From positions 832,001-896,000 of the forward strand of contig CAXXFF010000001.1 of assembly GCA_963676835.2 (NCBI GenBank): 64,000 nt of DNA, read 5' to 3'. Origin of the DNA: Marispirochaeta sp. (GTDB taxonomy: Bacteria; Spirochaetota; Spirochaetia; JC444; Marispirochaetaceae). Below the pieces are notes generated by a model. That model was not told the DNA's origin. It saw only the letters and a program-made list of their open reading frames with translations, and made no database searches. The first letter of the stretch is position 1; every line of letters starts with the position of its first letter. Made by a program: the position numbers and the translations under genes. This document shows positions 8,406 to 53,378 of the stretch, piece by piece.

Positions 8406-9017
8406 GTGAAAACAAGGAAGATGATCGGATTTCAAATCATACAAAGTTTAAGAGCATTACTCAGATCTAAAACAACCAGGACCAATAAGGCAAAAGTAGA
8501 AAGCGAGGCAGGCTTCAGCTATATGGAAACCCTCATTGCCCTGCTGATACTCACCGTTCTTGCCTCCGGGTCCGCCTTCTTTGCGGCCGCCCTGTTCAGA
8601 GCCCCGGGAAGAATCCTCGAATCATCCCGGGAATCAGCAGCCCTTGCCCTTCTCGATACAGAGTTCCGCAGGGCATGCGGCGGAGTGGCCCTGCCCTGGT
8701 GGCAGACTGAAGTTACCGCCGAAATCCTGACCATCGCTCCCGAAGAGGTAAAGGTCCGGGCTCTCTCACCGGCAGAGAATGATGAAATCCAGCTGCAGAT
8801 GACCCTTTCCCGGACAGACAGGAGCAGGCAGCTTATTATTCAAACCGCCGGAGAAGAACGAACTTACCCCATTCCGGAAGCCTTTGTTCCCAGGTTTGCC
8901 CCCGGCGAATCCGGTACAGCTGAAGGAGTGGTATTGCTTCTGGAATCCCCGGATGAAAATGTCTCCATTACCGGCCGCTGGAGAAGCAGATCTATCTTCG
9001 GAGGCCATGATGGCTGA
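8406..9017 (+). CDS. Minor pseudopilin (GspJ-like)
   Basis: G/FSYMETLIALLIL prepilin motif; operon position. Start uncertain. Confidence 0.75.
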   Translation: MKTRKMIGFQIIQSLRALLRSKTTRTNKAKVESEAGFSYMETLIALLILTVLASGSAFFAAALFRAPGRILESSRESAALALLDTEFRRACGGVALPWWQTEVTAEILTIAPEEVKVRALSPAENDEIQLQMTLSRTDRSRQLIIQTAGEERTYPIPEAFVPRFAPGESGTAEGVVLLLESPDENVSITGRWRSRSIFGGHDG

Positions 9018-10143
9018 ACCGACTGAATGCAGGAACCGGACGGGTAGCAAAAAAAATACAGCCTGTAAAAAAGAAGAAGGGGCCATAACTCTGACGGCGA
9101 TACTGGTTCTGGCCTTCGCCTGCTTTCTGACCATCTCTGCAGCAGCCATTGCCATGGCCCAGAAAAATCAGCTCCGCGCCTTTAAGCGTACAACCGCAAG
9201 GGTTCAGGAACTGACAGAAGCCGCTGACATGGTGCTTGCCCTTCTATCAGAAGAAGAACCGGATGCCCCGGACTGGCGGGGGAGCTCCTTTTTTTCAGCA
9301 ATTGCAGAAATCGAAAACGAAACAGGCTTTAGCATCGTGGTTGAGGACCTTTCCAGCAGGTTCAACCTCAATTCCCTGAACAAAAAGATGATCACTGAAA
9401 CACAGATACAGAACTCTATGCTGCCCGGAACCGGTGCCGATGCCTTTCAGCAGGACCGCTCAGACCGGGGATTCGGCCTGAGCCCCCTGCCCAGGTGGGA
9501 GGATTTTTTTACCCGGGAGTTTCTCGAAAACTATGCAGCCTGTACCGGCGGATGGAATATAAATACCGCCGATGAGTTTTCCCTGGAGGCGGTATTTGCA
9601 GAAGTTACCGGTGATGAAACTGCGGCAGAGCTGTTCCACGAAAAGATCAGGGAAAAACGCAAAAGCCTTGAGCTGATACCAGCTGAAAAGCTTGAAGAGT
9701 TTATCGGCATACAGTACTTCTCCGGGGTGTACCCGGTAATACACGCCTTTCCCGAATTCAATGTGCACTTCGCCCCGGAGTGGGTGTTAAAGCAGATACT
9801 TGCCTACCCGGCATACAAGGTGGCCGATCCCGCAGCAACTGCAGAAATGCTGATCTCATTAAGAGACAGCCGGGGGCTCAGCCGTGAGGAGATTATCAGC
9901 CTCATTCCCATACAGCCCGACCCCGATGAAACAACAGCAGAAAAACGGCCGAAAGAGGAGAATCGCCTTTTCGCCTGGCTGGGAAACACCACCCTATTCT
10001 GGCGCATCACCGTACAAAGCAAAGAGAATGAAAATAGTGAAAAGATAATGATACGGGAAATTGCCCTTATTCCGGACTCCCGGGGAATGTCCGGGGCACA
10101 CAACCGGGAATACCGGATCATAAACGAGGAGCTCCCATGGTAA
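9010..10143 (+). CDS. gspK: GspK-like minor pseudopilin
   Basis: G/AITLTAILVL leader without Glu+5, EDLSSRFNLN, NINTA and NVHFAP motifs; GGAGG before ATG 9010. Confidence 0.8.
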   Translation: MAEPTECRNRTGSKKNTACKKEEGAITLTAILVLAFACFLTISAAAIAMAQKNQLRAFKRTTARVQELTEAADMVLALLSEEEPDAPDWRGSSFFSAIAEIENETGFSIVVEDLSSRFNLNSLNKKMITETQIQNSMLPGTGADAFQQDRSDRGFGLSPLPRWEDFFTREFLENYAACTGGWNINTADEFSLEAVFAEVTGDETAAELFHEKIREKRKSLELIPAEKLEEFIGIQYFSGVYPVIHAFPEFNVHFAPEWVLKQILAYPAYKVADPAATAEMLISLRDSRGLSREEIISLIPIQPDPDETTAEKRPKEENRLFAWLGNTTLFWRITVQSKENENSEKIMIREIALIPDSRGMSGAHNREYRIINEELPW

Positions 10144-47227: not shown

Positions 47228-48862
47228 GTGAAGATGGGGTTTTTATTCTCCTGTGCCATAATTCTCCGCATTGACGGCAGTGCTGCCTCACAGAGCGGAT
47301 ACGCGGAAAGCATCAAGTCCGCCGCCGACACCGGGGGCATTCCATTAATATGGAACCTGTCGGATGACCTGGCCGGGAATACCGGAATCAATGATTTTCT
47401 CAGCAGCGGCAGATCAGGCCTGCCCCACCCTTTTCTCAGCGAAGAGGAATTGAAAGCAGAAATCCATCTTGCACATTCAGACACAGAAACGGAAACTTAT
47501 CCCTGGCTGCTTCCGCACATGCCCGACCTCTGCCGCGGCAATATACGAAGTATCTATAATAAAAGAAGCAGGCTTCTGCTGACCCGGAAAGACCAGGTCT
47601 GGATTATCCAGGGATCAGAAAGCAGAACCCTTCCCCTGCTGGAACTGGACGGAATGTCAAATGATGTATGGGAGAAAAAGTCTCTGAAGCAGTGCTTCAG
47701 GGATCTGCGCAAAAAGGCCCGGCAGGCGGAGAGTCCAGGAGTTATCCTGATTGATAATCCCGCCGAAGCCATGGCGGAGGAAATCTTTTCACTCCTTGCC
47801 GCCGCGGTCACATCACTGCATATCAAGCCCACGGACCTGTCCGGGCTGCTGAGTTCTCAAGGGCCGGAACAGCCTGGCGTGCCTCCAGCCCTGCCGTCTT
47901 TTCTTGAATCCACCGGCCTGCTCCGGGATCCTGTCAGCCGGCAGCAGCGTTCAGTTCCCTGGACCCTTCCTGATGAAACCAGACTGAAACGTTTGAGTGG
48001 AGACAGGCTGAAAGATTTCCCGTCAGAGGCTGATATACACGTAACTCATCGGGATCTGATCGCAAATATGCCCGGGGAAGTCTATATGTATGAAGGAGAG
48101 ACCGGGGCAGTTTTCAATAAGGGGGATCTGGCAAGTCTTTACCTGGATAAAAAGCGCCCCATCGTCAATGGTGCTGCCAGGGCATTTATACAATGCAGCA
48201 GAAGAGAATTACCCCGGCAGAGCGGCTCCTGCACCGTCCGGAGAATCGGAACCTTTTCCTTCGATGATTATCCCGCCCGGGGGCTCAGGGATTCACTCTC
48301 ATTTACCTCATCATCCTTCAGCTCTCCCGCCCGGATACACAGGGATTTCTTTTTTGTCTCCGGAGATACCAGACTTTGTATCTCCTTCTTTATTGAATAT
48401 CCCGGCATTGAAGATCCCGATGTGGTGGTTGAGTCCTTCGGGTTCATGGAAATACCCCTTGCAAAGGCTGCAGGAAAAAACAGCTACAGTGTGGAAACCC
48501 GCTACCCTGATGGAACAAAAGGCAGCTGCAGATTTACCGAACCCGGGGAATATCTGCTTACCGGCAGCAGTTTCACGTTTCCATCCGGCAGTGGTTCACT
48601 CACCCTCAGCTACAGCGAAAACAGTCAGTCCGTGCAGGAACTTCAGGTCTCTTTACGCAGGGGAAAGCTCTATCTCAACCCCCGGGGCAGCTATGCACCG
48701 GTGTTGGGTACTGCCCTTTCCGGGTTGAGGGAACAGTTCAGTATTGTCCTAGATCTGGAAAACAATGTGAAAAAGAGAGAAGAAACCGGACTTTCCAGCC
48801 TAAAACCCTATGTAGAGGCACACCGTATTTTCAAAGCTGTTCTTCAGACTCATAGGCAGTAA
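47228..48862 (+). CDS. Hypothetical protein
   Basis: 544-aa ORF with an alpha/beta N-part and a beta-rich C-part; no confident family. Confidence 0.65.
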   Translation: MKMGFLFSCAIILRIDGSAASQSGYAESIKSAADTGGIPLIWNLSDDLAGNTGINDFLSSGRSGLPHPFLSEEELKAEIHLAHSDTETETYPWLLPHMPDLCRGNIRSIYNKRSRLLLTRKDQVWIIQGSESRTLPLLELDGMSNDVWEKKSLKQCFRDLRKKARQAESPGVILIDNPAEAMAEEIFSLLAAAVTSLHIKPTDLSGLLSSQGPEQPGVPPALPSFLESTGLLRDPVSRQQRSVPWTLPDETRLKRLSGDRLKDFPSEADIHVTHRDLIANMPGEVYMYEGETGAVFNKGDLASLYLDKKRPIVNGAARAFIQCSRRELPRQSGSCTVRRIGTFSFDDYPARGLRDSLSFTSSSFSSPARIHRDFFFVSGDTRLCISFFIEYPGIEDPDVVVESFGFMEIPLAKAAGKNSYSVETRYPDGTKGSCRFTEPGEYLLTGSSFTFPSGSGSLTLSYSENSQSVQELQVSLRRGKLYLNPRGSYAPVLGTALSGLREQFSIVLDLENNVKKREETGLSSLKPYVEAHRIFKAVLQTHRQ

Positions 48863-49636: not shown

Positions 49637-49665
49637 GTAACAGTTTTCCGTCTTCCGGTTGTTAC
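49637..49665 (+). promoter_or_regulatory. Candidate ECF-type promoter
   Basis: GTAAC-N16-GTTGTT upstream of the ECF sigma gene; also forms a GTAACA/TGTTAC inverted repeat. Confidence 0.4.
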
Positions 49666-49692: not shown

Positions 49693-50199
49693 GTGAAGAC
49701 GGGAACAGGGATATTAAATGTGGCAGTTGATGTAGAAAACCTGTACAGCACCTACGGTCCTATGGTGCTGAGACGGTGCAGATCTCTTCTGAGAGATGAA
49801 GAAGCAGCGCTGGATGCAATGCAGGACACCTTTATCCAGGTACTCAGAAAAAAGAAAGAGCTCGATGCCAGAGCTCCTTCAAGTCTGCTCTATACAATCG
49901 CCACAAACATCTGTCTCAATACCATGCGGAAACACAAACGGACTCCGTTTCTCATGGATGACGAAATCCTCGCCCAGGTTGCCGGTTCAGACGATCCGGA
50001 ATCCCTGGCCCTGGCCTCCCATTTTCTCGACCGGCTGTTCCGTACCGAAAAAGAGTCGACCCGTACTATCGCGGTGCTGCACTACGTTGACAGACTGACC
50101 CTTGAAGAGACCGCGGACAAGGTAGGCCTGTCCGTGTCGGGAGTACGCAAGCGGTTGCGGTCACTGCGGAGCAGGGGACTGGCCCTTAAGGAGGTATAA
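49693..50199 (+). CDS. ECF sigma-70 factor
   Basis: Regions 2 and 4 only: LY..Y...V.RRC..LL.DEE.A.DA.QDTF, LYTIATN.CLN, LTLEETA..VGLSVSGVRKRL. Confidence 0.93.
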   Translation: MKTGTGILNVAVDVENLYSTYGPMVLRRCRSLLRDEEAALDAMQDTFIQVLRKKKELDARAPSSLLYTIATNICLNTMRKHKRTPFLMDDEILAQVAGSDDPESLALASHFLDRLFRTEKESTRTIAVLHYVDRLTLEETADKVGLSVSGVRKRLRSLRSRGLALKEV

Positions 50200-50203
50200 A
50201 TCC

Positions 50204-51013
50204 ATGAGCAGAATAATTCCGGATATATTAATAGAACAGGCAGCCCTGGGAGAACTTTCTCAGGAAAAAATGGACGAGCTGAGGAAAGAGTGTGACCTTG
50301 ATGCCCTGATTGCGGAAATTCAGGCTTCAAACAGGGAAATTCTGAATAAGTATCCACCGGCAGAGATAGCCGGGAGAATAAAGAGTGGCGGACAAATACA
50401 GTTAGAGAAAAAAAGGCCCCCTGCAGCAGAAGAAAAAAAGCCCCGACGCATACTTCAGGGGGTATTCCGGGTAGGCCTCCCCATGGCTGCTGCAGCCGCT
50501 CTTTTTATCGCCGTTGGACTTCCTGCCATGCGAAGCGGCGGCAGTCTCAGCGATGATGCCGGAGCCATGGGTGTGCGCCTTAAAGGGCAGGAGCCGGAAA
50601 TAAAGGTCTACCGCCAGACATCCGGCGGAGCGGAAGAGCTGCAGAACGAGGATACTGTCCACGAAAATGACCTGCTCCAGGTAAGCTACATAGCCGCAGG
50701 ATCCAAATACGGCGTTATCCTTTCCATAGACGGCAGCGGGGCAGTTACTCTCCACCATCCCGGCGGGGTGATCGGGGATCAGCAGCTGGCAAAGGGCGGC
50801 GAGTATGCCCTCCCGTTCAGCTATCAGCTTGATGATGCGCCCCGGTTTGAACGCTTCTATTTTATCAGCGGCAGCGAGGAGATCCCCATGGATCTGCTGA
50901 TGAGTGAGGCAGAGCGGGTAGCCATGAGCCGCACCGGGCTCTGGGCCGAGACCTTTCACCTGCCGGACCAGTTCCGCCAGGAATCCCTTCTTCTGCTGAA
51001 GGGCAGCCGCTGA
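50204..51013 (+). CDS. Putative single-pass anti-sigma factor with DUF4384-like periplasmic domain
   Basis: Helical N-domain (EQAALGEL), TM helix, GVRLKG, then D.LQVSY..YGVILSIDGSG.VTLHHP..LPFSYQLDDAP.FERF; 4 bp after the sigma gene. Confidence 0.75.
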   Translation: MSRIIPDILIEQAALGELSQEKMDELRKECDLDALIAEIQASNREILNKYPPAEIAGRIKSGGQIQLEKKRPPAAEEKKPRRILQGVFRVGLPMAAAAALFIAVGLPAMRSGGSLSDDAGAMGVRLKGQEPEIKVYRQTSGGAEELQNEDTVHENDLLQVSYIAAGSKYGVILSIDGSGAVTLHHPGGVIGDQQLAKGGEYALPFSYQLDDAPRFERFYFISGSEEIPMDLLMSEAERVAMSRTGLWAETFHLPDQFRQESLLLLKGSR

Positions 51014-51031
51014 AAAAGGCGGGGAGATGAT

Positions 51032-53350
51032 ATGAAAAAGATACTTTGCCTTAGCGCAATAATTTTACTGTTTTCCGGCGCACACCTTTTCAGTGCCGAC
51101 CAGCCAGCCCTGCGGCGGTTCGCCCTGTTTATCGGTTCCAACAATGGAGGCAGCGAGCGGCAGCATCTGCTCTATGCGGAAAAAGATGCTGCAACCCTGG
51201 CAGGAGTTCTGACAGAAGTGGGCGGCATTGCCCCTTACGACTCGGTACTGCTCTCGGATCCGGCAAAAACAGATGTTGACGGTGCATTCGCATCTTTCAG
51301 AGAACGTATTGAAGCGGTTAAGTCCGGTGTAAAACGGATAGAGTTTATTCTTTACTATTCCGGTCATTCAGATGATGAAGGCCTGCTACTGGGGGAAGAG
51401 AAGTATCTCTACTCGGATCTGAGAAATAGTATAAACTCCGTGGATGCGGATGTACATATTGCCATTCTCGACTCCTGTTCCTCCGGAGCATTTACCCGGC
51501 TGAAAGGGGGAACCCGCAAGAGCCCCTTTCTGGTGGATGAATCGGTGGAGACATCGGGACATGCATTTCTTACATCCAGTTCTGAAGACGAAGCAGCCCA
51601 GGAGTCGGACTCCATCGGGGGCTCATTCTTTACCCACTACCTGGTCTCCGCCCTGAGAGGCGCCGCTGACTCAAGTCAGGATTCAAAGGTAACCCTCAAT
51701 GAAGCCTACAGCTATGCTTCCAACGAAACCCTGGCCAGAACCGAAAACAGTCAGGCAGGCCCCCAGCATCCGTCATACGATATAAAACTGACCGGTTCGG
51801 GAGACCTTGTTCTTACGGACCTGCGATCCACCGATGCGGTGGTGGAACTAGATGCAGCCATCGACGGCCGGCTCTTCCTGCGGGACAGTCAGGGCCGGCT
51901 GGTTGCGGAAATGCGCAAGCTTAAAGGAATTCCCATGGCACTGGCACTTCCTGCGGGCCTCTATTCTGCAACCCTCCAGACAGACAGCCGGCTGATGCAG
52001 GCGGATCTTCTGGTCAGAAGTTCCTATAAGGCTATGGTCTCACCCGCAGATTTTACTCCCCTGGACAGGGAAGGTACCCGCAGCCGGGGAAATCGCGAGT
52101 TCCCCTACTACACCCCCGGCCTGCCTTCAGACCCCCCGTCGGGAATTATCGGAGAAATACGCAGCGATCTCTACAACTCCCTGAACTGGGATCTTAACCG
52201 GGATCCGTCAGAACTTAAGCACCTCAATAACTGCTTCAGCCTGATTACCCCCCCGTCCATGGCCACCGACACGGTTATCCATAATTTCGGCCTCTATCTG
52301 GTGGGGACCAGCTACCGCCTCGAAGGCTTCGGACTGGGTATAGCAGGCATGCAGGTACAGGACATGCATGGTGCCCAGCTCAGCTCGGTCTTTTCCATAA
52401 CCGGCGGGGACTCACTCGGCTTTGCCGGTGCGGGTGTGTTCACCATAACCGGCGGCGATATGATCGGTGCAGCCAGTTCCGGCGTATTCAACATTGCCGG
52501 AGGAGATGCCTCCTTTTTCCAGGGAGCAGGGCTTTTCAACCTGGCCGAGGGAGAACTGACAGGGGTTCAGTCAGCCGGACTTTTCAACATAAGCGGTGAC
52601 GGAGTACGAGGTGTACAGGCTGCAGGGCTTTTCAATATCAACAACAACGATACATCCGGTGTACAGGCGGCGGGGCTTTTCAATGTCAGCTCCGGCCAGA
52701 CCTCGGGGGTTCAGGCTTCGGGAATGCTGAATATCGCGGAAGAGACCTCGGGAGTTCAGATTGGTGCAATCAACATTGCGGAGAATATCAGCGGGATTCA
52801 GGCAGGGGTTATCAATATTTCCGAAAATATGGACGGCCTGGCTCTTGGACTGATAAATATCTCATCCAACGGTCTGCACAATATGTCCGGCTGGACAGAT
52901 GATGCAGACTACCTCTACTTCGGGTACCAGTTAGGCGCCGGTGTAAGCTATACGGTTTTTTACGGCGGAGCACCCATGGACGGCGGGACAGAGGCGGGGC
53001 TTGTTTCCGGCCTTGGACTGGGCTTGCATCTTCCGCTGGGAACATTATATGCGGATATTGATCTTTCTGCGAAGATGGAGGTTCCCGGAGAGAGCGGAAC
53101 AGAGCAGGCAGGACAGTTTTACAACTATTCCGAAGAGAAGATTATCTGGCCGTCCCTGCGGGCATCCCTGGGCATGGAACTCTTCGGCGGTCTGGCTGTT
53201 TTCGGGGGAGTTACCCTGGAAGGATATATCCCGGAGGTCACCAACTTTTCGGAAACCTTTCACAGCGGATCAAGCAGCACGGTGCCTCTCTTTGACAGCG
53301 GCACCGACATGGAAATATTTCCGAAAATGTTTTTCGGTATCAGAGTTTAA
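51032..53350 (+). CDS. Exported caspase-family (C14) protease with 15-aa repeats and a C-terminal beta-barrel-like region
   Basis: Sec signal peptide, RFALFIG.N, YYSGH(112), LDSC(149), FFTHYLVSALRGAAD..D..VTLNEAY; G.Q.AGLFN repeats at 52370-52865; amphipathic C-terminus ending FFGIRV. Confidence 0.88.
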   Translation: MKKILCLSAIILLFSGAHLFSADQPALRRFALFIGSNNGGSERQHLLYAEKDAATLAGVLTEVGGIAPYDSVLLSDPAKTDVDGAFASFRERIEAVKSGVKRIEFILYYSGHSDDEGLLLGEEKYLYSDLRNSINSVDADVHIAILDSCSSGAFTRLKGGTRKSPFLVDESVETSGHAFLTSSSEDEAAQESDSIGGSFFTHYLVSALRGAADSSQDSKVTLNEAYSYASNETLARTENSQAGPQHPSYDIKLTGSGDLVLTDLRSTDAVVELDAAIDGRLFLRDSQGRLVAEMRKLKGIPMALALPAGLYSATLQTDSRLMQADLLVRSSYKAMVSPADFTPLDREGTRSRGNREFPYYTPGLPSDPPSGIIGEIRSDLYNSLNWDLNRDPSELKHLNNCFSLITPPSMATDTVIHNFGLYLVGTSYRLEGFGLGIAGMQVQDMHGAQLSSVFSITGGDSLGFAGAGVFTITGGDMIGAASSGVFNIAGGDASFFQGAGLFNLAEGELTGVQSAGLFNISGDGVRGVQAAGLFNINNNDTSGVQAAGLFNVSSGQTSGVQASGMLNIAEETSGVQIGAINIAENISGIQAGVINISENMDGLALGLINISSNGLHNMSGWTDDADYLYFGYQLGAGVSYTVFYGGAPMDGGTEAGLVSGLGLGLHLPLGTLYADIDLSAKMEVPGESGTEQAGQFYNYSEEKIIWPSLRASLGMELFGGLAVFGGVTLEGYIPEVTNFSETFHSGSSSTVPLFDSGTDMEIFPKMFFGIRV

Positions 53351-53378
53351 GCATCAGAGTTTAAGCATCAGAGTTTAA
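53339..53378. repeat. 14-bp tandem repeat, about 2.9 copies
   Basis: ATCAGAGTTTAA(GC) at 53339, 53353 and 53367. Confidence 0.95.

Follow-up and report, generated by a model that had tools for sequence, protein, structure and literature searches.

The trio and its conservation

We analysed a window of 64,000 nucleotides from Marispirochaeta sp. (GenBank assembly GCA_963676835.2, contig CAXXFF010000001.1, positions 832,001 to 896,000 of the forward strand), in which three consecutive genes encode a sigma factor of the extracytoplasmic function (ECF) class, a predicted anti-sigma factor and an exported caspase-family protease. The three open reading frames lie on the plus strand, as do all features described below unless stated, at 49693-50199, 50204-51013 and 51032-53350. 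The gaps between them, 4 and 18 bp, agree with those given in an earlier reading made from the letters of this DNA (the sequence-only reading). The trio is flanked by a divergent biotin ligase gene and a convergent gene of the tRNA methyltransferase family, and its surroundings are housekeeping genes of ordinary GC content.

A genome scan with the middle gene returned at least 523 relatives, and the best 80 loci were used. They are spread over Spirochaetota, Myxococcota, Aminicenantia, Fermentibacteria, Chitinispirillaceae and others, and of the named relatives among them Candidatus Marispirochaeta associata is the closest. In four of the 80 the contig edge was too near to judge both neighbours. 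The complete trio was found in 66 of the 76 loci with both flanks (the 66th, L076, lies a few bases beyond the distance cut-off; the script itself counted 65). The trio is therefore conserved across genomes, as a gene-neighbourhood check of the sequence-only reading called for. Six incomplete loci had an anti-sigma and a caspase gene without a sigma gene, and four had a sigma and an anti-sigma gene without a caspase gene. The caspase gene was 3' of the anti-sigma gene in 75/79 loci with downstream DNA, and the sigma gene 5' of it in 71/77. Among distant matches that were fetched, 13 of 14 were full trios, the remaining one being a different anti-sigma type without a caspase. Three myxobacterial genomes were searched whole and all three hold both halves of a split cassette, with 6 to 8 matches each. 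We also compared 61 Spirochaetia genomes for cassette and promoter, related genomes among them not being independent; 20 carry the cassette, one copy each.

Several individual loci depart from the common layout. L050 (Archangium; sigma and anti-sigma) and L066 (Myxococcus; anti-sigma and caspase) are syntenic, with an epimerase upstream and a TPR gene downstream, as if one ancestral trio had lost different genes. In L082 the sigma and anti-sigma genes are followed at 8780-9364 by a gene for a 195-residue exported protein that matches only the barrel and has no caspase domain. A fused anti-sigma/caspase of 823 residues, one among 8,000 longer candidates, was rejected as a frameshift artefact, having an internal signal peptide and a garbled junction.

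Sigma factor and predicted anti-sigma factor

The first product, 168 residues as listed (49693-50199), is an ECF (group 4) sigma factor, as had been proposed. It matches Sigma70_r2 (1.1e-13) and Sigma70_r4_2 (2.9e-5) in Pfam and TIGR02937 (7.1e-18) in NCBIfam, and consists of sigma2 and sigma4 only, within the ECF size of approximately 160-200 residues. Two same-genus homologs begin at the codon equivalent to 49720, which may be the true start. In the ECF classification of Casas-Pastor 2021, ECF25 has DUF4384 anti-sigma factors and ECF216 is myxobacterial; the passages on these two groups do not mention the gene context seen here.

The second product, 269 residues (50204-51013), is predicted to be a single-pass anti-sigma factor of the ActD family from its fold model, hydropathy and profile homology. 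The AlphaFold2 model has helices at residues 7-69 and a beta sandwich at 132-266, with predicted local distance difference test (pLDDT) values below 50 over most of residues 85-122. We divide the protein into a cytoplasmic helical domain (residues 1-69; 50204-50410), which by model and profiles would be a zinc-less version of the zinc-finger anti-sigma domain, a predicted transmembrane helix (residues 90-108; 50471-50527; mean Kyte-Doolittle (KD) hydropathy 1.98) and a periplasmic Ig-like, DUF4384-like beta sandwich (residues 128-269; 50585-51010), the last delimited by the model, fold search and homologs. A membrane stretch with KD of at least 1.6 was found in 80/80 homologs, with more Lys and Arg before it than after it in 71. 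Of the single-pass protein with a periplasmic beta domain previously suggested, the beta sandwich is seen in the model; the membrane helix rests on hydropathy, because the model is of low confidence at 85-122.

This copy has no DUF4384 (PF14326) match in Pfam; nine of 115 homologs and eight of 13 distant paralogues match at E <=0.01, and the Ig-like fold agrees with such a domain. Foldseek gave no match for the anti-sigma at E <=0.001, and the best hit of a wide fold search was an S-layer Ig domain (Z 9.3), which is a common fold. The middle-protein profile aligned with the distant paralogues at a probability of 99.9 over 242 columns; H-x3-C-x2-C zinc ligands are present in 12 of the 13 paralogues, and their profile retrieved the anti-sigma domains of 3hug_B, ChrR, DdvA and RsiW. 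Judged by these profiles, homology to zinc-finger anti-sigma factors, by way of the distant paralogues, extends along the whole of the middle protein. The family is large: at 50% identity, the anti-sigma profile picks up 2,321 clusters with E <=1e-30, a number that rises to 7,959 with E <=0.001.

An exported caspase-family protease with a barrel anchor

Pfam, a fold model and fold searches describe the third product (772 residues; 51032-53350) as an exported C14 caspase-family protease with an outer-membrane anchor. The signal peptide expected from the sequence-only reading was found by hydropathy and inspection at approximately residues 1-22 (51032-51097). It is hydrophobic in 73/73 proteases with a readable start and a lipobox occurs in none, including this one, which rules out lipoprotein anchoring. 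The caspase fold spans residues 24-266 (51101-51829), with H112 at 51365-51367, C149 at 51476-51478 and S1 residues D52, S110 and D147. Peptidase_C14 matched over residues 28-251 (1.9e-12), and the fold superimposed on metacaspase 4 with Z 20.6 (root-mean-square deviation (rmsd) 3.0, 208 residues aligned). H112 and C149 are invariant in 114/114 and 69/69 aligned homologs, in keeping with the intact caspase dyad originally claimed. A small beta domain follows (approximately residues 267-340; 51830-52051), which homolog comparison and the model indicate is kept in all family members.

Residues 394-612 (52211-52867) form a beta-helix stalk of LA_2272-type repeats, with NF047436 above its cut-off and a fold match to 3p4g (Z 20.1, rmsd 2.9, 222 aligned). 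The repeat period was 16 residues for six spacings and 14 for the next three, not the 15 residues first given. Residues 613-772 (52868-53347) form an eight-stranded outer-membrane beta-barrel in the model, which matched the solved barrels of OprF (Z 14.4, rmsd 3.3, 123 aligned), OmpA (12.6), PagL (12.5), NspA (12.3) and OmpW (12.0). A beta domain and a barrel-like C-terminus had both been anticipated.

In an even-stranded barrel both termini point into the periplasm, the usual topology of barrels of the OmpA/OprF/NspA type. Lying N-terminal to such a barrel, the beta-helix and the protease domain are placed in the periplasm. The helix-barrel tail is found in 52 of 63 complete proteases. In the other 11 there are no repeats and the constant part runs straight into a different tail, of which three kinds occur (152, 196 or 293 residues); the repeats are therefore dispensable, which rules them out as an obligatory sensor. 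They look like a stalk, not a sensor, and the earlier idea that a ligand is sensed through them is not supported, given their predicted periplasmic position and their absence from 11/63 proteases. Autotransporter export was likewise rejected. Type Va translocators have 12 strands and approximately 250-300 residues; the barrel found here has eight strands and approximately 160 residues, and the protease gave no autotransporter match in Pfam.

A basic-Gly motif shared by protease and anti-sigma

D52, S110 and D147 are invariant in the protease homologs and the S1 pocket is acidic. The three residues align with, or occupy, the positions through which TbMCA2 (D95, S156, D211) and MALT1 (D365, D462) select basic P1 residues (PMC4357240), and we predict a pocket of the Arg/Lys type.

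Three candidate cut sites would suit such a pocket, and all are in or beside disordered segments. The first, R125-L-K127-G128 of the anti-sigma (50576-50587), is 18 residues outside the membrane helix and is a candidate site-1 cut between K and G. It is part of a V-R-L-K-G motif in which KG is kept in 80/80 loci and R-x-K-G in 78/80. Among 140 further anti-sigma representatives K is found in 140, G in 139 and R in 131, with a mean top-residue frequency of 0.16 in the preceding linker. The second, T155-R-L-K158-G159 of the protease (51494-51508), stands where the disordered post-Cys loop begins and is a candidate for self-cleavage. K158-G159 lies nine residues after the catalytic Cys; KG is kept in 73/73 loci and 114/114 homologs, and R-x-K-G in 69/73. 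The third, R352-G353 (52085-52090), lies in the disordered linker that leads to the anchor and is a candidate for release of the protease; here Arg or Lys followed by Gly is found in 69/69 loci, and R in 113, K in one and G in all of 114 homologs. The pLDDT of the protease is below 50 at 159-172 and at 347-358. From this conservation we read the second, third and first motifs as putative self-activation, release and site-1 cut sites, respectively.

Anti-sigma residues 124-128 against protease residues 155-159 ranked first of 203,520 five-column profile pairs, scoring 15.9 against 12.8 for the next pair, and R-x-K-G occurs in 0.9% of random 41-residue windows. The distant paralogues keep K-G in 13/13 anti-sigmas and 12/13 proteases; in the exception, L105, the protease has G-I-K-S-G and the anti-sigma G-V-K-G. 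As controls we used 30 DUF4384 domains outside cassettes (the top 30 of 77 matches, several of them contributed by related genomes). R-x-K-G preceded the domain in 0/30 and K-G in at most one, and all three cassette DUF4384 domains compared alongside had R-x-K-G; a general structural need of DUF4384 for K-G is thereby ruled out. The other seven caspase domains of the source genome have R-G after the Cys and none has K-G. A predicted complex of protease 23-345 with anti-sigma 113-269, from paired 69-row alignments (L088 was left out, its protease start having been mis-picked), reached scores of 0.08 and 0.15, where the mark was 0.32; it was folded without controls and we count it neither way.

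Related motifs were seen elsewhere. The 293-residue repeat-less tail of L042 contains T-R-I-K-G, and the post-Cys site of the same protease is without the Arg (T-S-V-K-G). In the source genome itself, L114/L115 (C2:1229000-1258000) form an island that encodes exported proteins, among them five more caspase domains, joined with WD40, Ig or FGE-sulfatase parts and having R-G after the catalytic Cys; the island also encodes a papain-like protease, a vWA-PEGA protein, a Sel1 protein and a weak DUF4384 match. Non-cassette DUF4384 domains in L129-L133, L138-L140, L143 and L150 carry T/S/N-R-G near their C-terminal end, and a caspase gene is near five of the 30 non-cassette DUF4384 loci. Combined with a basic-Gly motif, DUF4384 may serve more generally as a substrate module for caspases.

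Promoter and predicted regulon

A predicted promoter for the sigma factor lies at 49637-49663, with a -35 element GTAACA, a 17-base spacer and a -10 element TGTT. The computed motif, GT(A/G)AC(A/G)-N17-TGTT, stands before 57 of 69 sigma genes, where shuffled sequences give a mean of 0.05, and also in 6/6 anti-sigma/caspase loci that have upstream DNA and no sigma gene. A sigma-70 promoter scan upstream of the operon gave no site. In the window the promoter is a perfect inverted repeat, GTAACA-N17-TGTTAC (49637-49665); the same motif can be read on the minus strand, where it faces the divergent biotin-ligase gene 48 bases further. A site before a resistance-nodulation-division (RND) gene in L109 also reads both ways (1428 and 1456), and a promoter of this kind could drive transcription in both directions. 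Nine loci (L022, L031, L053, L088, L012, L015, L024, L026 and L087) have a second, divergent motif copy just 5' of the sigma gene, facing a gene for a small exported protein of approximately 180-215 residues without a Pfam match.

A stricter pattern gave 84 sites in the 20 cassette genomes, 19 of which have one or more; the 41 cassette-less genomes have 15, spread over nine of them. A reversed control pattern gave 17 and 28, respectively. Within the genus, strict sites numbered 6, 7 and 5 in genomes with the cassette and 0, 0 and 0 in those without. The source genome has nine sites scoring at least 17, against two in shuffles. Sites of the source genome that recur in one or both of two same-genus genomes stand before an RND efflux adaptor and AcrB pump, a DUF2807 exported protein, an LPP20 lipoprotein operon and a POTRA/Omp85-like protein. 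A shared site before an Hsp20 gene is weaker in the source genome, one upstream of a flavodoxin gene falls inside an open frame, and several other matches inside long genes may be chance. Near other loci the motif precedes TonB-dependent receptors (5/8) and small exported proteins (9/10). The predicted regulon thus appears to be one of envelope genes.

Around the operon, a 14-base tandem repeat (2.9 perfect copies, 53339-53378) extends over two stop codons, that of the caspase gene and that of its convergent neighbour, and the site scan listed no terminator-like site between the two. A 544-codon frame at 47228-48862, between groEL and the biotin ligase gene, is without a credible Pfam or NCBIfam match.

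The Myxococcus act operon

The anti-sigma homolog of L066 is named ActD by NCBI and UniRef. Its locus reads GGDEF, sigma-54 activator, epimerase-GNAT genes, actD and then a caspase of this family. ActD is 33% identical to the window anti-sigma over its whole length (E 9e-44), and the caspase that follows is 37% identical to the window protease. No sigma gene is present at the act locus (it is located elsewhere), and a sigma promoter stands directly before actD. By these comparisons Myxococcus ActD and the product of the next gene are members of the anti-sigma/caspase family. The act operon has been described as actABCD and elsewhere as a set of five genes, transcribed together, that control the positive feedback of C-signalling; we infer that the fifth act gene is the caspase gene. 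In the literature searched we found nothing that names MXAN_3216/3217, or ActD, together with a mechanism, and the main text of a 2026 transposon screen of M. xanthus development contains neither 'caspase' nor 'actD' (its supplements may hold fitness data). The actD mutant of Gronewold and Kaiser (2001) is said to delay CsgA production.

A proposed trans-envelope switch

We regard the cassette as a real and widespread trans-envelope switch of double-membrane bacteria, and as a variant of regulated intramembrane proteolysis, not a new category. In the mechanism that we favour, with a probability of roughly 60%, the caspase processes itself and makes the site-1 cut at K127-G128, after which RseP frees the sigma factor. 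At rest the anti-sigma would hold sigma at the inner membrane, with the protease kept apart as an inactive precursor at the outer membrane. A signal, probably tied to the state of the outer membrane, as the envelope regulon suggests, would cause the protease to cut itself at K158/G159, activating it, and at R352/G353, releasing it from stalk and barrel. The freed protease would then cut the anti-sigma at K127/G128 and remove its DUF4384-like lid. An 18-residue stub would be left open to RseP, and the released sigma would direct transcription, at GTRACA-N17-TGTT promoters, of the operon that encodes it and of envelope genes. The site-1 role is likely, given the matching candidate cut sites and the Arg/Lys-type pocket predicted for the enzyme. 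An RseP-type M50 gene is present in the genome; the same holds for 14/14 control genomes, and a gene so nearly universal lends weak support.

Several points weigh against this mechanism. A docking or inhibitory segment can be fitted to the same motif conservation, and MALT1 keeps the same post-Cys loop uncut, as described in the passages covered (as a precedent in favour, the orthocaspase MaOC1 self-activates after Arg219). The third site is R-G in the close family and the other two are K-G. K127-G128 stands just before the first strand of the beta domain, where it could have a structural role specific to this family. Sigma binding by the middle protein, which would follow from homology and gene position, has to be reconciled with the absence of the H-x3-C-x2-C ligands from this protein and from 140/140 close-family representatives. 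An exact promoter match is missing from one cassette genome (G044), and such matches do occur in nine of the 41 cassette-less genomes. The 80 loci, as the best of at least 523, are skewed toward close relatives. The release step is invoked because an outer-membrane protease could hardly come into contact with a site 18 residues from the inner membrane; given the stalk-less members, it is difficult to do without release or, failing that, capture of the protease on its way to the outer membrane. Finally, the literature searched held no cleavage, binding or expression data for any family member.

The protease could instead be an output of the system. Sigma would be freed in some other way, the caspase would be a regulon member that processes envelope proteins at Lys/Arg-Gly, and any cut in the anti-sigma would serve as feedback or amplification. 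We consider this unlikely. The protease gene does stand under the sigma promoter, even when apart from the sigma gene, and 4/76 loci have sigma and anti-sigma without a caspase; many non-cassette DUF4384 proteins with a C-terminal R-G are also found beside R-G-type caspases, so that the motifs may mark a general processing system. However, other regulon members vary from locus to locus, whereas the caspase is linked in 75/79 loci and in 13 paralogous cassettes, and the K-G variant is common to the protease and the anti-sigma only.

Rather unlikely, too, is a role of R-x-K-G as a pseudo-substrate or docking latch, in which the periplasmic domain restrains or activates the protease, as PCi does PCaspase, and sigma is released by binding and not by a cut at K127. 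PCi, encoded in a sigma-linked operon, is both cut by PCaspase and an inhibitor of it, but is described as CI-2-like, which is a different fold (10.1101/2023.06.23.546230). Mimicry of the enzyme's own post-Cys loop suits an inhibitor as well as a substrate, and DUF4384 is, in the sources covered, often fused to proteases. Against a latch stands the position of the motif, in a short linker between the helix and a bulky domain, where site-1 cuts fall in single-pass anti-sigma factors.

It is quite improbable that the repeats face outward as a ligand receptor, or that the passenger is displayed on the surface like an autotransporter protease, with binding clustering the caspase domains. The order of signal peptide, protease, beta-helix and barrel is that of autotransporter proteases, the helix resembles those of adhesins and two-partner secretion, and NCBIfam names the repeat a surface repeat. 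Yet the barrel is an OmpA-type anchor in size and strand number, not a 12-stranded translocator, the repeat-less proteases use three other barrel types, and a protease on the surface could not reach the anti-sigma. Sensing by the outer loops of the barrel is possible and would be compatible with the mechanism that we favour.

We hold it highly improbable that the cassette is a defence or cell-death module of the craspase, PCaspase or DdvS/DdvA kind, its caspase or regulon being lethal or giving protection against phage. Although the characterised caspase-fold and sigma systems in the literature covered are anti-phage (PMC10028731, 10.1101/2022.08.17.504292, 10.1101/2023.06.23.546230, PMC11506125), no defence gene recurs among the neighbours of the 80 loci, the predicted targets are envelope proteins and the cassette of the window sits among housekeeping genes at ordinary GC content.

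More tentatively, the favoured mechanism may be extended to a self-releasing caspase that works as a spatial switch spanning the periplasm: while on the outer membrane, it would be out of reach of the anti-sigma. Outer-membrane damage, a failure of barrel assembly or a stimulus received by the outer loops of the barrel would lead to R-x-K-G cuts in the protease itself and then in the anti-sigma, and so to the envelope regulon. In myxobacteria the cassette would have multiplied into several channels that differ by exchange of barrels; ActD and the caspase next to it would make up one of these and feed into the timing of C-signalling in fruiting-body development. We hold this extension, taken as a whole, to be possible but less than even.

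If the proposed mechanism is true, the few known site-1 proteases are joined by a caspase-family enzyme anchored in the outer membrane. A large class of exported bacterial caspases, for which no function has been settled since they were first catalogued (PMC3501461), would then gain a concrete job outside death and defence. The predicted cut sites, promoter and targets, together with the ActD link, make that function directly testable. The genetically tractable M. xanthus carries members of the family, one of them in the act developmental operon, and the last act genes are without a molecular explanation in the literature covered.

Comparison with known systems

In the literature searched, mostly outside subscription papers, we found no description of the cassette's mechanism, motif or promoter. 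In FecA/FecR/FecI an outer-membrane barrel with a periplasmic N-terminal effector domain is coupled to an anti-sigma and an ECF sigma. The present system differs in having an eight-stranded barrel instead of a TonB-dependent transporter, a protease instead of an STN domain, and no FecR domain.

Sigma/metacaspase operons have been noted before. A 2012 survey (PMC3501461) lists four M. xanthus metacaspase operons with a sigma-70 factor, and others in Anaeromyxobacter, Haliangium, Sorangium, Ralstonia and Fibrobacter, which are very likely the same cassettes as those described here. The passages available suggest a role in cell death and describe no anti-sigma, barrel, cut site, promoter or mechanism. 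In PMC7889975 and PMC12288465, as far as covered, nothing relevant was found.

Like the sigma-E pathway of RseA, DegS and RseP, the cassette has an ECF sigma, a single-pass anti-sigma, a predicted site-1 cut followed by RseP, autoregulation, and a predicted regulon of outer-membrane proteins, lipoproteins and a chaperone (PMC10028731). The site-1 protease of sigma-E is an inner-membrane PDZ serine protease (PMC10028731), whereas the candidate here is an operon-encoded, outer-membrane-anchored cysteine protease of the caspase fold; the periplasmic domain and the promoter also differ.

Two cytoplasmic systems share the logic of a caspase-type protease acting beside a sigma factor. In type III-E craspase (Csx29/Csx30/CASP-sigma) a caspase-fold protease cuts the anti-sigma and relieves sigma, a cut that is predicted here, and some Csx30 C-terminal domains are DUF4384; unlike the present cassette, craspase is cytoplasmic, RNA-triggered, of the CHAT family and CRISPR-linked (PMC10028731, 10.1101/2022.08.17.504292). 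The SAVED-CHAT/PCaspase/PCc-sigma/PCi system of Haliangium ochraceum has a C14 caspase encoded with a sigma and a protein that it cuts, and is activated by cleavage, the corresponding cuts being predicted here; it differs in being a cytoplasmic, cA3 (cyclic tri-adenylate)-triggered cascade with broad toxic proteolysis, in which sigma itself is cut (10.1101/2023.06.23.546230). We rejected a caspase system linked to CRISPR or to cyclic-oligonucleotide-based anti-phage signalling (CBASS) for the window, since the protease has a signal peptide and no cas, cyclase or SAVED genes recur among the neighbours of the 80 loci (selected neighbours were scanned against Pfam).

Like the cassette, DdvS/DdvA of Myxococcus xanthus combines an ECF sigma, a zinc-finger-type anti-sigma and a periplasmic caspase fold (PMC11506125). 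The caspase-fold domain of DdvA faces the linker beside the membrane helix; truncated DdvA is an RseP substrate, and a site-1 cut by the caspase fold has been proposed, not shown (PMC11506125). Unlike the cassette, DdvA carries its own TPR-CHAT within the inner-membrane protein, and DdvS controls CBASS and CRISPR genes (PMC11506125). Here the protease is a separate C14 enzyme with an outer-membrane barrel, and the anti-sigma is a protein of 269 residues with an Ig-like domain and no TPR-CHAT.

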